This document shows positions 4,340 through 30,551 of a stretch of 39,505 bases of DNA, piece by piece. Made by a program: the position numbers and the translations under genes. Positions within the stretch are counted from its first letter, which is position 1. Each line of letters opens with the position of its first letter. Under the pieces are notes generated by a model, which saw only the letters and a program-made list of their open reading frames with translations, was not told the DNA's origin and ran no database searches. The stretch spans positions 1 through 39,505 of the forward strand of contig JBHLQH010000033.1 of the NCBI GenBank assembly GCA_048884965.1. The letters are read 5' to 3'. The DNA is from Candidatus Thorarchaeota archaeon. GTDB lineage: Archaea; Asgardarchaeota; Thorarchaeia; Thorarchaeales; Thorarchaeaceae.

Positions 4340-4492
4340 GACGAATCGAAAAGTATCCAGTAATTGCTTGAGTAGGGGAAGCGACAGCTCATCGAGAAGA
4401 TGGGTTGTTAGATTTAGTGCAGATTACCATCAAACTAGTTGGGACTAGGATAGGTAGGAATCTCGCACCTCGATTCGTCAGATACTACTTTT
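4340..4492 (+). ncRNA. Candidate structured cis-regulatory 5' leader (riboswitch-like)
   Basis: Perfect 10-bp long-range stem 4340-4349/4470-4479 enclosing nested stems whose G-U pairs work only on the + strand. Lies upstream of the Met-precursor operon. Confidence 0.45.
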
Positions 4493-24614: not shown

Positions 24615-25217
24615 TCACGATTCGTGCCTTCCTCTCTGTCTGAGTCTAGAGCGTATCAGATAGTGAAGAGGTACTACCAAGGTATCGGGATGGTCATAGT
24701 ATCTGGTCAAAGCGGGTGATCTTTCGAATTTATGCCTGTAAACAATAGCACCCAAGGCAATGAACCCAACTAACACACCCACTACGATTGTTGAGATCGG
24801 CACTTGTCTCATAACTACTCTGATGTGTACTGATTCTGATATCGAATTCGACAGATAGTCTGAACATTCCAAGGTTAGTATGAATGCACCATCTCTTCTG
24901 GGTTTCCACTTGTAGGGTATCTCATAGTTGCCTATTTTCAGTTCTTCATTGCCCACTAGTAGGTTGAGAGAGCTGATACCATGCTCTGATTTGATATCAA
25001 AGCAAATATCCACTGTACCATAGGGTACTGTGTCTCCTTCCTGCGGAGAAAGAAACCTCACGACGATTGGATCTGTTTCGTTATATTCCTCCTGCTGAAT
25101 ATAGAAAGTTGTGATTGGAAGTATCATGTCACGATCAGGTGGACAGCTTGTAGCTGATGGAGTCAGAGATAGGATGCATATGATAATCCCATAGAGAACC
25201 CATCGAATTTCCTTCAT
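24615..25217 (-). CDS. Hypothetical membrane-anchored protein with an Ig-like domain
   Basis: Signal peptide, PIVVRFLSPQEGDTV...PYKW...G.FILTL..D..N pattern, TM helix, cytoplasmic tail. Confidence 0.65.
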   Translation of the reverse strand: MKEIRWVLYGIIICILSLTPSATSCPPDRDMILPITTFYIQQEEYNETDPIVVRFLSPQEGDTVPYGTVDICFDIKSEHGISSLNLLVGNEELKIGNYEIPYKWKPRRDGAFILTLECSDYLSNSISESVHIRVVMRQVPISTIVVGVLVGFIALGAIVYRHKFERSPALTRYYDHPDTLVVPLHYLIRSRLRQRGRHES

Positions 25218-25429
25218 TCCACGATATATTTAGGTAATTACCAAATTAGCTTTTTGTTGATTGCTAGAGTATTGCAAAACCACGAGGTCATATCTTAGCA
25301 AATTGGTTCCTATGTCTTATCACAATCACCATCGCGTTCTCCGCTACACTTGGTAAGTCATAGGTACGAATCCTCTAGGCAGGTGAGTATTTAGAAAGAG
25401 TAAAAGCCTCTATCATCCTTGGTGAACCT

Positions 25430-25495
25430 GCGGTGATGATGAACCACCATTTGTGAGTATGAACACATGATCGTCCCAAGGGGTATCTGAGCCGC
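25430..25495 (+). ncRNA. Box C/D guide sRNA (2'-O-methylation guide)
   Basis: Terminal stem GCGGT/GCCGC; box C ATGATGA 25436-25442; D' ATGA 25459-25462; C' ATGATCG 25467-25473; box D CTGA 25487-25490. Exact K-turn register, intergenic location. Confidence 0.72.
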
Positions 25496-25527: not shown

Positions 25528-26367
25528 TCACTTTTCTTTTCGAAGCATCTTCTGTCCATACACGACAACTAGCACGACTGCTACTATCACAAACAGCACA
25601 AGAGATGCATATGTTGCTACCTGCGTATTGAGGATGGGGAACAACCATAGCGATAGGTTCAGTGAGGTGTGCAGTAAAAGGGTCGCAAGCACGCTACCGT
25701 TTGCGTTATTGTACACCCAAGTGAAGATGATTGTGCTAAAGGTCACTGCGATGAACATCACCCAAATGGGATGCTGGTAGTACATGGACCCAGTCGCGCC
25801 TGCATAGACTAGGAAGAGAGGTAGGTGCCATGCGGACCACAGAAGCCCTAGAATGATGCTCGAAGTGAGTGCACTGAATCGTTCCTGTAGACGCGGAAGG
25901 GCATAACCTCGCCAACCAAACTCTTCCTGTAACGGTCCTGCCGTCAAGAGGATGATGATGAACGAGATTGGGACGACGAAGACAAGCTCCGCTGTCAGTG
26001 CTGGGAAGGTGAAGTCCACTGCTATCATCCCGATTACTGCAGATACCACCACAATGATTGGGAATAGGAAGAGTACTGGCAAGAGCCAGATCTTTGAGAA
26101 CTTGATGTTGATACCACTCTTCAAGAGATCCTTGATCGCCTGCAGCTTTCCGGCTCTATAGCTCATGATAAGGGCAGCAAGGAGAGGTCCAAAGGCCGCA
26201 GGATTGAAGGGGCTCATGAAAAAGTCTGTTATTGGAGATGCCGGCAGGAATCCAAGGCTCTCCAAGATTATAGGAGCCCAGAATATCCATGAGATCACAT
26301 AGGTGAGGATGAAGAATATCCAGATGTCTGTAGCATGTTCTTTCTGTGTTGACTCTTTTACTGCCAT
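25528..26367 (-). CDS. CPBP-family (CAAX/Abi) intramembrane glutamic/metalloprotease
   Basis: EEFGWRGY, WSAWHLP, LLHTSLN and multiple TM helices. ATG 26367 follows AGGAG. Confidence 0.92.
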   Translation of the reverse strand: MAVKESTQKEHATDIWIFFILTYVISWIFWAPIILESLGFLPASPITDFFMSPFNPAAFGPLLAALIMSYRAGKLQAIKDLLKSGINIKFSKIWLLPVLFLFPIIVVVSAVIGMIAVDFTFPALTAELVFVVPISFIIILLTAGPLQEEFGWRGYALPRLQERFSALTSSIILGLLWSAWHLPLFLVYAGATGSMYYQHPIWVMFIAVTFSTIIFTWVYNNANGSVLATLLLHTSLNLSLWLFPILNTQVATYASLVLFVIVAVVLVVVYGQKMLRKEK

Positions 26368-26477
26368 GGATAGCACTCCTTGGCGAAATCAAGTCGTCGC
26401 TGCTAGAGGTCCTAATAAGACTAGCGCGAGCTCTCAGAAGACCTAGGTCTAATAGGCTTGGGAGCTATCTTCACCTG

Positions 26478-29400
26478 CTATTCTCGCTTGTAGACTCGCA
26501 TCTTGAGGAAGGAATAGATGATCATCAACAGGATGACACTCAACAGGGCTACTGGCGATACAACCGTGATCCAGTGCTCCTGCGGGTCCCAGTCGATGCC
26601 ATCTGGGATACCATCTCCATCGGTGTCATCAGAGTTGGGTAGCATGCAGTACTCGACCTCATAGGCATCTGACCAGCCGTCTCCGTCAGTGTCCGCGGTA
26701 AAGGGCGAGAGGTTGTTCAGCACCTCAAAGAGGTCGCTCAACGAATCACCGTCTGTGTCAGGAGATAGAAGGTTGAGGCCCATCTCGTACTCGAAGCCGT
26801 CTTCCAAACCGTCAAGATCAGTGTCCGCGCTCAGAGGATTGCTGAAGATCACGTACACTTCCTGATAGTCGTTTAAACCGTCCCCATCAGTGTCGGCCGA
26901 TGTAGGATTGGTTCCGAGCTGTGCTTCTGTACCGTCTGAGATTAAGTCCCCATCGGTATCGTTGGAGAGAAGGCTTGAGCCCCATGTGTACTCATCATAG
27001 TCCGATGCTCCATCTCCATCGGTATCATCGGAAGTAGGATTCGTTCCAGCATTGATCTCAAAGTCATCACTAAGTCCATCCAGATCCGAGTCTCTGAGAT
27101 AGGGTGAGGTCCCGAGGGCGACCTCATCATAGTCATTGATAGTGTCACCATCCATGTCCTCATGCAGGGTGACTGTAAGAGTAAAGTTCGTTGCTCCACC
27201 ACCAATGTTCGTGACATTGAAGTGGTATGCACCAAAATCTTGAACAAGATACTTGAGGACCGCGGTACCATCACTCTCGGTTCTTTGATAGACGACTTCC
27301 CCAGTTTCTGAGTTCACGATACTGACCTGTAAGGTAGTCGCATTATCCCAGGTCACAGTACCATTCAAGAATCCTTTGAGCGAGGCTGTGAGTCGCATTT
27401 CCTCTTGAGAGGTTATATTGAGCCAGCCATTCAGATATCTCTGTGGCACCTCGCCAGATCCTAGCAGTCCCATGTAGCTGACAATGGAAGCAGTAGTTGA
27501 AGCTACCTCGGCAGCCTTCACAAGGGAGAAGTCAGGGTTGTCCCAAGTATCATCTTCTGTATTGGATTGCGGGTCTGGAAGATATCCCTGAGTGACGTAG
27601 AGAGCTGGGCGTCCCGCTTGCCAAAATTCGTAGGCACATGATCTTTGGGCTATCGAAAGGTCTGAAACCTGCTGGAAGAAGCCGTTACCATACTGAGAAG
27701 ATATCTGGATCATCATATCCGGAATCCAGCCTGCATCATGATAGTTGCTTGTTGAAGAGTACGTTCGAATATTCACTTTGTAGCCATAGAGATAGCCCGT
27801 GCGCTGGAACATCAATCTATCGTAGGAGATGGTCGTAAAGGATTGGACTCCCTGGGCTACAATCCAATCTACAAAGGCACCTCCTCCTAGGTCATAGTCT
27901 TCATCCAAGTGTACGCCATTAAGCAGGACATAGTAGACATCGTAGGCAAGGTCATAGTCGTGCAGAATACGAGCGACCTCTAGAACTACTGCTACAGTGA
28001 CTGCTGCATCATTTGCTCCTGGCGTGTACTCAGAGTCGATAATTCCTGTGATGACTAGGGCTGGTCGTGGAGCTGGTGCAGTACCTTGCTTGATAGCAAT
28101 GAGATGTTCAAAGTCGGTTTCCTGAGCGAAGGTGAGCTCATCATTGGTGTTGTTCTGAAGCACCTCGTTGGCCCATTCCCACGCATCCGTCAGATTCTGA
28201 TTCGCACCATCATCTGTATTCCATATCCTGTTGGGATACGTTTCCGAGAGGTACTTGGTATAATTACCGATGTTATCAATGGATGTTTCCTCCCAGATAG
28301 TGAGAAAGAGGTTCGTTGCGTTGAAGTATGTGGTTGCTGAAAGAACAGGGCTCTCGATGCTTGTTCCAATAGAATGTGACGCGATCGTCCCTGTCATAGT
28401 AACGGATGATCCGATGAAAAGTGAGAGCACAATGAGTGACAGTCCCAGCTTAAACCCTGTGCCTTTCATACCTTTAGCGTGACTCCGAAGCCCATTAAAT
28501 GCGTTGTTCTTAGCGTAGCTAGGAATCACTACCTTCTCGCCACCCTTGATATATGCGCGGCGTTTAGAGAATAGGATACCAAGGATTGCCAGAGTAAATG
28601 CAATGAGTATCACCGGCGGTATTAGCATGATCCAGTGCTCTCGAGGGGCCCAATCCTGTCCGTCAGGAATGCCGTCTCGGTCCGTATCTGCATCAAAGGG
28701 CATAAGGCAGTGCTCTACTTCGTAGGCATCAGAGAGCCCATCAAGATCCGTATCTGCGGATAGAGGGTTCAGAGCGTTGAGCACTTCGAACAGATCACTC
28801 AATCCATCTTGATCCGAGTCCGGCGAGAGGGCATTCGTGCCAATAAGCCACTCTTGGTAGTCATCGATACCGTCTCGATCAGTGTCGTCCAATCTAGGAT
28901 CCGTTCCAAAGTCTAGCTCGAAGTCATCAGTCAAACCTTCTCCGTCAGTGTCATTTGAAGACGGATCATAACCGTGGTCGATCTCATATCCATCGAGAAG
29001 TGTGTCTCCGTCAGAATCCTGTACCAAGGGATTGCTACCGTAGATGATCTCGATACCATCGATTGCACCATCAGCGTCAGAATCAGCAAGCCGCGGGTTG
29101 GTTCCGAACACCTGTTCGTCAGGATCTGACAACAAATCAGAGTCTGTATCTGTCGAGAGGCTGTCTGTTCCGAAGAGGTATTCCTCATAGTCATCCAGGT
29201 TGTCCCAATCCAAGTCTTGGAACTGCGCATAGTTGTAGAGGATAGAAATGGACTCATTCCCATAGTTGGTGAACCTGATTGAGTATTCGCCTCTTGTAGG
29301 ATTCAAGCAACTCATATTGATAGCCTGATCAGATTCATTCCGGGAAAGAATCGTGGCTCCAGTGGGTGTCCGGATCTCAGCACGGACAGAGAAGTTCTTG

Positions 29401-30551
29401 TTCCAAGAAAGAGAAACATTGACTATGGAGAGACCTGTGATAGGCAGGGGAACGCTGGCCTGTGAGTACGCCCCAACGCCAATGGAACGTGTCAGCTCAG
29501 GAGCCTCACCATATCCTAGTCTACCAAGTGTAGCGACAATGGATGATGCAAGTCCGACCGCCTCTGCTATCTTTGCATAGTCATATGCCCAGACATCCCA
29601 TTCATCAGCGTAGTTATAGCTGTAGGGATCGCCATAGAACTGACCCAAGCTGATGCTCGGGATGCCATTCCGCCACCCTTCATAGCCGCCGGTGGAGTAC
29701 CAGAAGGGCAAGCTCGAGCTTTGGTTCGCTACTGTCAGGATATTCGTACCTGAGATTTCTGAGATTGTTCGAGCCATCCGTATGATATAGGCGACCGGGT
29801 CATATGGAGTCGCGAGTATGTTCCAGTCGAGTCGGATGTTCTCCCCGTAGGTCGTCACCGGATCAGAATAGAGAAGTTGATTGAACCAGATGATGCCTGC
29901 TGGCTTACGTCCCTGATTCTCAAGGTCACCAATGAGATTCTGAAGACCTTGATTACCATTCTCGAAATTGAAGTTTCCTGCTGAGATTGTGTTTGTCAGG
30001 ACAAAGTAAATGTCATTCGTCAAGTCATATTGATTGAGTATCCGTGCCGCTTCAATGACAGCTGCGACTGATGAGCCATAGGTATTTGCTCCAGGTCCAG
30101 TGGTATAGCGACTTGCAATGGTGCCAACGATAAGGATCGGAGCCAAATTATCTTCAGTGCCTTCTTTAATTGCAACCAGGTTCAAGTATTCTGTCAAGAA
30201 ATGGAATTCCAGTTCATTCCCTGTCGCTGTCTTAATGGTGTCGTTGACCCATTCCCATGCTCCTAGAAGCTCTAACGATCCATTCTTGTCCAAGGGGAAC
30301 CAGACTCGTTGCCCATAGTTCTGTGAGAGAGTACGAACGATACTCAAGGCGTTGCTCTCGCTAACCTTGGAATAGATATCATCCCAGAGGCTTTCAAGTG
30401 AGAAGGTCTCACTTGGAGCCAGTTGAACAATTGGATCGATAACAAGGTCGCTATGGGTTTCACTGTTTGTCATTGTTCCAGCAAATGGTATGCAAGAGAT
30501 AGCTAGAACGAATATCAATGCCACACTTACGTAGAACCGGCTCCAATTCAT
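26478..30551 (-). CDS. Tandem two-module surface protein: 2x [signal/TM, degenerate M28 peptidase fold, beta domain, 9 DxDxDG Ca-binding (TSP3-like) repeats, TM]
   Basis: PGANTYGSSVAAVIEAARIL and PGANDAAVTVAVVLEVARIL. About 22-aa repeats of type DTDGDGLSD..E...GTNP. The second module begins at ATG 28469. Confidence 0.8.
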   Translation of the reverse strand: MNWSRFYVSVALIFVLAISCIPFAGTMTNSETHSDLVIDPIVQLAPSETFSLESLWDDIYSKVSESNALSIVRTLSQNYGQRVWFPLDKNGSLELLGAWEWVNDTIKTATGNELEFHFLTEYLNLVAIKEGTEDNLAPILIVGTIASRYTTGPGANTYGSSVAAVIEAARILNQYDLTNDIYFVLTNTISAGNFNFENGNQGLQNLIGDLENQGRKPAGIIWFNQLLYSDPVTTYGENIRLDWNILATPYDPVAYIIRMARTISEISGTNILTVANQSSSLPFWYSTGGYEGWRNGIPSISLGQFYGDPYSYNYADEWDVWAYDYAKIAEAVGLASSIVATLGRLGYGEAPELTRSIGVGAYSQASVPLPITGLSIVNVSLSWNKNFSVRAEIRTPTGATILSRNESDQAINMSCLNPTRGEYSIRFTNYGNESISILYNYAQFQDLDWDNLDDYEEYLFGTDSLSTDTDSDLLSDPDEQVFGTNPRLADSDADGAIDGIEIIYGSNPLVQDSDGDTLLDGYEIDHGYDPSSNDTDGEGLTDDFELDFGTDPRLDDTDRDGIDDYQEWLIGTNALSPDSDQDGLSDLFEVLNALNPLSADTDLDGLSDAYEVEHCLMPFDADTDRDGIPDGQDWAPREHWIMLIPPVILIAFTLAILGILFSKRRAYIKGGEKVVIPSYAKNNAFNGLRSHAKGMKGTGFKLGLSLIVLSLFIGSSVTMTGTIASHSIGTSIESPVLSATTYFNATNLFLTIWEETSIDNIGNYTKYLSETYPNRIWNTDDGANQNLTDAWEWANEVLQNNTNDELTFAQETDFEHLIAIKQGTAPAPRPALVITGIIDSEYTPGANDAAVTVAVVLEVARILHDYDLAYDVYYVLLNGVHLDEDYDLGGGAFVDWIVAQGVQSFTTISYDRLMFQRTGYLYGYKVNIRTYSSTSNYHDAGWIPDMMIQISSQYGNGFFQQVSDLSIAQRSCAYEFWQAGRPALYVTQGYLPDPQSNTEDDTWDNPDFSLVKAAEVASTTASIVSYMGLLGSGEVPQRYLNGWLNITSQEEMRLTASLKGFLNGTVTWDNATTLQVSIVNSETGEVVYQRTESDGTAVLKYLVQDFGAYHFNVTNIGGGATNFTLTVTLHEDMDGDTINDYDEVALGTSPYLRDSDLDGLSDDFEINAGTNPTSDDTDGDGASDYDEYTWGSSLLSNDTDGDLISDGTEAQLGTNPTSADTDGDGLNDYQEVYVIFSNPLSADTDLDGLEDGFEYEMGLNLLSPDTDGDSLSDLFEVLNNLSPFTADTDGDGWSDAYEVEYCMLPNSDDTDGDGIPDGIDWDPQEHWITVVSPVALLSVILLMIIYSFLKMRVYKRE
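26600..27160 (-). repeat. Nine Asp-rich DxDxDG protein repeats, module 2 (approximate bounds)
   Basis: From DMDGDTIND to DTDGDGIPD in the translation. Confidence 0.8.
28660..29217 (-). repeat. Nine Asp-rich DxDxDG protein repeats, module 1 (approximate bounds)
   Basis: From DLDWDNLDD to DTDRDGIPD in the translation. Confidence 0.8.

Follow-up and report, generated by a model that had tools for sequence, protein, structure and literature searches.

A probable box C/D guide sRNA gene with conserved orphan guides in an intergenic gap of a Thorarchaeota genome

Does an apparently empty intergenic gap in an Asgard archaeal genome hold a gene for a box C/D guide sRNA and, if so, which RNAs could its guides address? 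In archaea, box C/D guide RNAs correspond to the snoRNAs of eukaryotes, and the Asgard archaea are the lineage closest to eukaryotes. The source genome is a Thorarchaeota (Asgard) archaeal metagenome-assembled genome (MAG) of 4.09 Mb in 99 contigs, 95.7% complete with 7.2% contamination, and the window, the whole stretch of DNA that was analysed, covers 39,505 nt of one of its contigs. The element, at 25430-25495 on the plus strand, lies within a 310-nt gap flanked by two minus-strand ORFs, an Rce1-like CAAX protease (25528-26376) and an ORF of 200 aa that matches nothing in Pfam (24615-25217). It is not a 5' UTR, because no sense-strand gene lies downstream. We conclude, with a probability of about 0.9, that the evidence is best explained by a genuine archaeal gene for a box C/D sRNA, equipped with a promoter of its own; the class of RNA is well known, and this newly described case of it has guides that are conserved orphans.

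The 66 nt read GCGGT-G-ATGATGA-ACCACCATTTGTGAGTATGAACAC-ATGATCG-TCCCAAGGGGTAT-CTGA-GCCGC, identical to the letters first reported. At the ends, GCGGU (25430-25434) and GCCGC (25491-25495) can pair as a 5-bp terminal stem (G30-C95, C31-G94, G32-C93, G33-C92 and U34-G91, as offsets from 25400), enclosing box C, AUGAUGA (25436-25442), and box D, CUGA (25487-25490). Between these boxes, all on the plus strand, lie a 10-nt D' guide, ACCACCAUUU (25443-25452), the D' box GUGA (25453-25456), a 10-nt D'-C' internal loop, GUAUGAACAC (25457-25466), the C' box AUGAUCG, which departs from the canonical RUGAUGA (25467-25473), and a 13-nt D guide, UCCCAAGGGGUAU (25474-25486). A 3-nt bulge of G25435, A25436 and U25437 follows the stem in kink-turn register, and beyond it come G38.A90, A39.G89, U40.U88 and G41-C87 (again as offsets from 25400), so that every contact behind the earlier claim of an exact kink-turn register, with a 3-nt bulge and tandem G-A pairs, is in place. 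Boxes C and D would be expected to adopt this fold. The single-sequence fold of the sRNA is not stabler than those of shuffles (MFE z = -0.34), which is expected for the box C/D class, and RNAalifold on a 13-sequence alignment predicted no structure in the guide regions.

Motifs this short could in principle have come together by chance where there is no RNA gene, and the whole window has no Rfam match at the gathering threshold. A strict scan of both strands of the 4.09-Mb genome, requiring RTGATGA, CTGA 28-62 nt downstream and a stem of at least 4 bp in register, returned 11 sites, compared with 1-3 in reversed or block-shuffled controls; with D'/C'-like boxes at sensible spacing as a further requirement, 25430-25495 was the sole match and the controls gave 0. 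By chance, the architecture is to be expected ~2 times per genome, and 0 times with the internal boxes included. When species-representative genomes were scanned for the pattern, five MAGs proved to carry the element. BLAST against 40 relatives gave matches in five genomes of the same genus and in several further genera, limited to the element (query positions ~27-99 of the segment 25400-25520) and excluding the flanks. A covariance model (R1), built from an alignment of 13 sequences (A1), identified homologs in 45 of 86 family genomes and 9 of 16 genera, usually in single copy: 5/6 genomes of genus g1, 26/28 of g6, 3/3 of g7, 4/4 of g10 and 2/2 of g9, as well as members of g8, g13, g14 and g15. 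No homolog was found by this search in g3 (0/17), g4 (0/7), g5 (0/5), g11, g2, g12 or g16, which makes for a clean division by genus. The source genome carries a single copy by the same model; three weak matches (C5:138773, C5:156494 and C39:15661; E 0.2-0.5), which resemble coding sequence and lack well-formed boxes or stems, were rejected.

The homologs also support the pairing and the boxes. In A1, 94% of terminal-stem cells are paired, against 31-53% with partners slid, and two stem pairs show compensatory changes (G-C to A-U; U-A / U-G / C-G). A larger alignment of 34 homologs (A2) is the source of the box and spacer counts given here; in it, stem columns 7/68 are UA in 7 sequences, UG in 5 and CG in 22, and the kink-turn contacts between box C and box D (G.A, A.G, U.U and G-C) are invariant (34/34). 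The initial annotation had named unconserved boxes in relatives as one of the observations that would count against a gene; box C (RUGAUGA) and box D (CTGA) are each kept in 34/34. With 45 genomes carrying homologs, compensatory changes in the stem, invariant boxes, a conserved promoter and homology confined to the element, we regard the probability of a chance constellation of motifs as practically negligible.

The putative promoter consists of a BRE-like purine-rich AGAAAGA (25393-25399, plus strand) preceding a TATA-like GTAAAAGCC (25400-25408, plus strand), which is centred ~26 nt upstream of 25430, the standard archaeal distance from BRE/TATA to start. Each of the 33 homologs with upstream sequence has an A/T-rich octamer (for example GTAAAAGC, GTAATATC, CTAAAACG or CTCATATC) at -31 to -24 relative to the start of the stem, with a purine-rich stretch before it. 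The A-rich promoter-like stretch originally placed about 25-30 nt upstream is present at 25393-25408, its position kept in 33 homologs, and we infer that it works as a BRE/TATA promoter.

The protein partners expected for such an RNA are encoded in the genome, with fibrillarin on contig C7 (294 bits) adjoining Nop5 (238 bits), and L7Ae-family proteins scoring 96 and 70 bits. Conservation, covariation and the fibrillarin, Nop5 and L7Ae genes strongly support the earlier proposal that this gap holds a box C/D guide sRNA which annotation had missed and which has a promoter of its own. It resembles archaeal box C/D sRNAs such as the Pyrococcus and Sulfolobus sR families in having the same box C RUGAUGA, box D CUGA and K-turn stem, the same internal D'/C' K-loop with two spacers of ~10-13 nt and an overall length of ~60-70 nt, and the same three protein genes in the genome. 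Its only sub-threshold Rfam matches are to archaeal C/D families, sR14 (RF01145; 13.7 bits against a gathering threshold of 38) and sR5 (RF01304; 11.8 bits against 40), with similarity limited to the boxes, and it belongs to no Rfam family. Our search of the literature for a catalogue of Asgard box C/D sRNAs found none.

Where the element departs from these known sRNAs is in its internal boxes, and here our reading differs from the initial annotation, which took AUGA (25459-25462) as the D' box behind a 16-nt guide. That AUGA is kept in just 21/34 homologs and reads GAGG or AGGA in other genera, whereas GUGA/GAGA at 25453-25456 holds invariant G-A pairs: the G and A of this box are unchanged in 34/34, and D'3-C'3 (G.A) and D'4-C'2 (A.G) are both found in 34/34. 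The D'1-C'5 position, which joins the first D' G to the C of C' UGAUCG (25468-25473), is a G-C pair in 33/34, and D'2-C'4 is U.U in 10, U-A in 6, A-U in 17 and C.U in 1. C' itself is ATGATCG in 26 homologs, ATGAACG in 6 and GTGATCG in 2. With GUGA (25453-25456) as the D' box, the guide ahead of it spans 10 nt (25443-25452) instead of 16.

GUGA and UGAUCG are non-canonical box sequences, with the closing D'/C' G-C pair flipped to C-G relative to the CUGA/UGAUGA consensus, yet they are able to form a K-loop. The 10-nt loop between them is long for an archaeal sRNA and is partly conserved, its length being 10 in 31/34 homologs and 9 in 3/34, and its motif UAUGAAC being kept in g1, g6, g8 and g15. 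The D' spacer ranges from 10 to 13 nt in the homologs (mode 11), which puts the 10 nt here at the short end, and the D spacer ranges from 12 to 14 nt, the 13 nt here being one over the usual range of 10-12. Archaeal guides of 10-12 nt are normal (PMC7994747).

By analogy with characterized archaeal sRNPs, the element would work as follows. The BRE/TATA promoter at 25393-25408 would drive its transcription, which would begin at about 25428-25430. The 5-bp terminal stem would join box C and box D into a kink-turn, and D' GUGA with C' AUGAUCG would form an internal K-loop. L7Ae would bind both the kink-turn and the K-loop and recruit a Nop5 dimer and two fibrillarins. The N+5 nucleotide of the D' guide is C25448, and the predicted target residue is therefore G; that of the D guide is G25482, so the 13-nt D guide is predicted to direct 2'-O-methylation of the C paired with it. 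Activity at the D or D' site is not guaranteed, because the C' and D' boxes are non-canonical, the 10-nt loop is long and the spacers are 13 and 10 nt.

The D' guide differs in sequence between species, with a CC motif alone common to the homologs, and the D' guides of 10 homologs share no common or covarying site in same-genus rRNAs, a site at SSU nt ~215 included. Two specific substrates were weighed. The initial annotation had pointed its 16-nt guide at SSU rRNA 934-945 (CACAAGnGGUGG); the Thorarchaeal site reads CACAAGGGGUGGA, to which the guide is partly complementary, and in the distant homolog G020a the pairing there extends to 9 bp. In the source sRNA it amounts to 3+5 bp with an A.G mismatch beside N+5, depends on the mis-assigned D' box (AUGA is present in just 21/34, against the invariant K-loop contacts of GUGA/GAGA), is equalled by 31/200 shuffles of the 16-nt guide, whose best matches are located elsewhere, and is not tracked by the variable D' guides of the homologs. 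This target is most improbable. Methylation of the T-arm of a tRNA-Phe (GGAUGGUGGU, position ~49) is also very unlikely, though slightly less so: all 10 nt of the D' guide pair with the tRNA-Phe at C9:108575 (8 Watson-Crick and 2 G-U), but 36/400 shuffled guides do as well, the differing D' guides of homologs are unable to pair there, and the gene for this tRNA, which encodes the CCA end, is part of a Leu x4-Phe array whose origin is uncertain, the MAG being 7% contaminated. The 10-nt D' guide is fast-evolving, and probably weak or non-functional.

The D guide has a different pattern of conservation. An 8-nt core abutting box D, AGGGGUAU, is identical in 28/32 homologs with this guide type and is shorter by one G in four g10 copies, and the 5' part of the guide varies (CCCA, CCUA, CCUU or CCCU). 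Since the core is conserved and the 5' part is variable, the constrained target core is AUACCCCU. SSU and LSU rRNA genes were looked for in the source assembly and are absent, and the rRNAs of congeners were therefore used for the target search, which covered the SSU rRNAs of G005, G001, G006, G007, G008, G014 and G009 and the LSU rRNAs of G006, G004, G015, G014, G008 and G010. Against the 61 tRNAs of the source genome, with flanks and introns, the D guide forms no duplex of at least 10 bp and does not exceed shuffles; neither guide has a target in its 5S, SRP RNA or RNase P RNA, and neither has one of at least 10 bp in the organism's own assembled RNAs. The best guide complementarity is 10 bp with the LSU of the congener G006, and 7 bp in other genomes. 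A resemblance of the D guide to the sense-strand sequence of 23S H91-92 was also checked and rejected, the best match having 2 mismatches in 12 and being located elsewhere. That no target could be assigned to the D guide, as the initial annotation stated, still holds after this extensive search.

Several explanations of the constrained core merit comparison. The best of the candidate substrates is a hairpin in LSU domain I (~nt 137-146), which holds the sole AUACCC[CU] site in the family SSU and LSU rRNAs examined. It has a conserved loop, YUAAUAC, a 3' strand CCCC... and a covarying stem, and lies just 5' of the conserved GGGAAC...GAACUGAAGCAUCU, in a variable helix found at 4412-4483 of a congener LSU locus (L033). 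The invariant guide core falls opposite the conserved half of the loop and the closing CCC, and in G006, of the same genus, 10 contiguous Watson-Crick bp directly abut box D. In G004, also of the same genus, 11/13 positions pair (10 Watson-Crick and 1 G-U, with 2 mismatches), and in G008, a member of g3 without the sRNA, the site has diverged to AUAACCUG. However, the 10-bp duplex is found in G006 only, and pairing elsewhere is shorter, at 7 bp (7 + 2 bp) in G004, 7 bp in six g6 genomes and 6-7 bp in both G015 and G014. The variable 5' part of the guide does not covary with the rRNA stem, G010 (g5) has AUACCCCU in its LSU yet has no sRNA, and chance alone would give a 7-mer match within ~4.5 kb of rRNA in about one case out of four. 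We therefore treat this hairpin as a tentative candidate substrate, more doubtful than probable, and would word with the same reserve the suggestion that the sRNA methylates the second C after AUA (~LSU nt 141) and/or chaperones folding of the variable helix.

Alternatively, the element may belong to a conserved C/D sRNP in which both guides are orphans and whose role lies outside rRNA and tRNA methylation, with an unidentified mRNA or ncRNA target, or a structural or chaperone function. Maintenance of the 8-nt core across 9 genera with no matching rRNA or tRNA site is consistent with such a role, as is an internal loop that is unusually long and conserved. To our knowledge, no archaeal C/D sRNA has a conserved target other than rRNA or tRNA, which argues against it. 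Scans for exact 12-mer complements also weigh on that side: in 61 family genomes (g1 guide) and in 28 g6 genomes (g6 guides), they returned only the antisense strands of the sRNAs themselves and chance-level matches with unrelated flanks. Orphan guides have precedent, making up 28% of Pyrobaculum guides (PMC7994747, PMC6009581), and conserved families in which both guides are orphans, though rare, have been described, Pyrobaculum sR43 among them (Lui et al. 2018, PMC6009581). The sR43 type is alike in its canonical external boxes, cross-species guide conservation and lack of detectable RNA complementarity; it differs in belonging to Thermoproteota rather than Asgard archaea, bears no sequence relationship to the present element and has no equivalent of the pattern here, in which the D-guide core alone is conserved and the D' guide drifts (PMC6009581). 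On balance, we consider a dual-orphan sRNP of this kind doubtful, if conceivable. It is unlikely that the core AGGGGUAU reads a non-canonical substrate (an mRNA or unknown ncRNA), or makes a 7-8 bp contact with the LSU hairpin loop as a folding chaperone; if either is true, archaeal C/D sRNPs would gain their first conserved target or mode of a non-canonical kind.

Alone, the box C/D sRNA gene at 25430-25495 changes no concept, as the RNA class is ordinary and orphan guides are common, and its main value is for annotation. It adds a family-wide Asgard sRNA gene with a defined, putative promoter and a conserved non-canonical K-loop, GUGA/UGAUCG. Together with the covariance model, which recovers the sRNA in 45 genomes, it should help in the annotation of Asgard MAGs and in future RiboMeth-seq work.

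Some relatives carry duplicated or altered copies of the sRNA. Genome G020 has two tandem sRNA copies ~60 nt apart (L010/L079; G020:C16 ~24633-24831, minus strand) that carry different D guides, one of the orphan type and one of a type directed at the LSU A-loop, and G001 has duplicated copies at G001:C552 656-726 and 1421-1491 (L005/L076). The differing guides of the G020 copies suggest duplication followed by guide replacement. The alternative D guide, (A/U)ACGGUGAGCA(U/G), is carried by the G020b and G012 copies and pairs over 9-10 bp with GUGCUCACCG, the LSU A-loop hairpin, a match kept in four LSUs from three genera. This pairing of the G020b/G012 guide gives one family branch a conventional rRNA target, at the active centre of the ribosome.

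In the source genome, the alternative guide occurs in a separate, more canonical sRNA candidate on contig C4 (~53125-53205, plus strand), with a stem GGCGGT/ACCGCC, a box C-like UCGAUGA, D' CUGA, C' UGACGA and box D CUGA; its D guide, AUCGGUGAGCAG, is complementary to the A-loop hairpin GUGCUCACCG of congeners. Another C/D candidate in this genome, at C43:6118-6182 on the minus strand, has a 6-bp stem (TGTCGG/CCGGCA) and perfect C/D boxes, with no obvious D'/C'.

The searches also brought up features of the RNA genes themselves. A tRNA array at C9:108216-108648 consists of Leu x4 and Phe, the tRNA-Phe having an encoded CCA end, and a second cluster at ~160.8-163.3 kb of another contig packs ~20 different tRNAs into 2.5 kb. 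Arrays this dense are atypical of archaeal genomes; viral or mobile DNA, or contamination of the MAG, could account for them. The G004 LSU (C122:57442-61312, L037), at ~3.9 kb, and the G014 SSU (C2:589938-592348, L105), at ~2.4 kb, far exceed the Rfam models in length, which suggests rRNA introns or large insertions.

The genomic neighbourhood of the sRNA differs among relatives. A divergent gene for a metallo-beta-lactamase (MBL)-fold protein stands beside it in g1 and g8 only, and synteny was accordingly dropped as a clue to function. In congeners the divergent MBL gene is directly beside the sRNA, ~135 nt away, and in the window the 200-aa ORF (24615-25217) is an extra one inserted between the two. 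Elsewhere in the window, a 1357-aa ORF on the minus strand (26478-30551) combines bacterial TSP3 repeats with a peptidase M28 domain, and is probably a secreted or surface protease.
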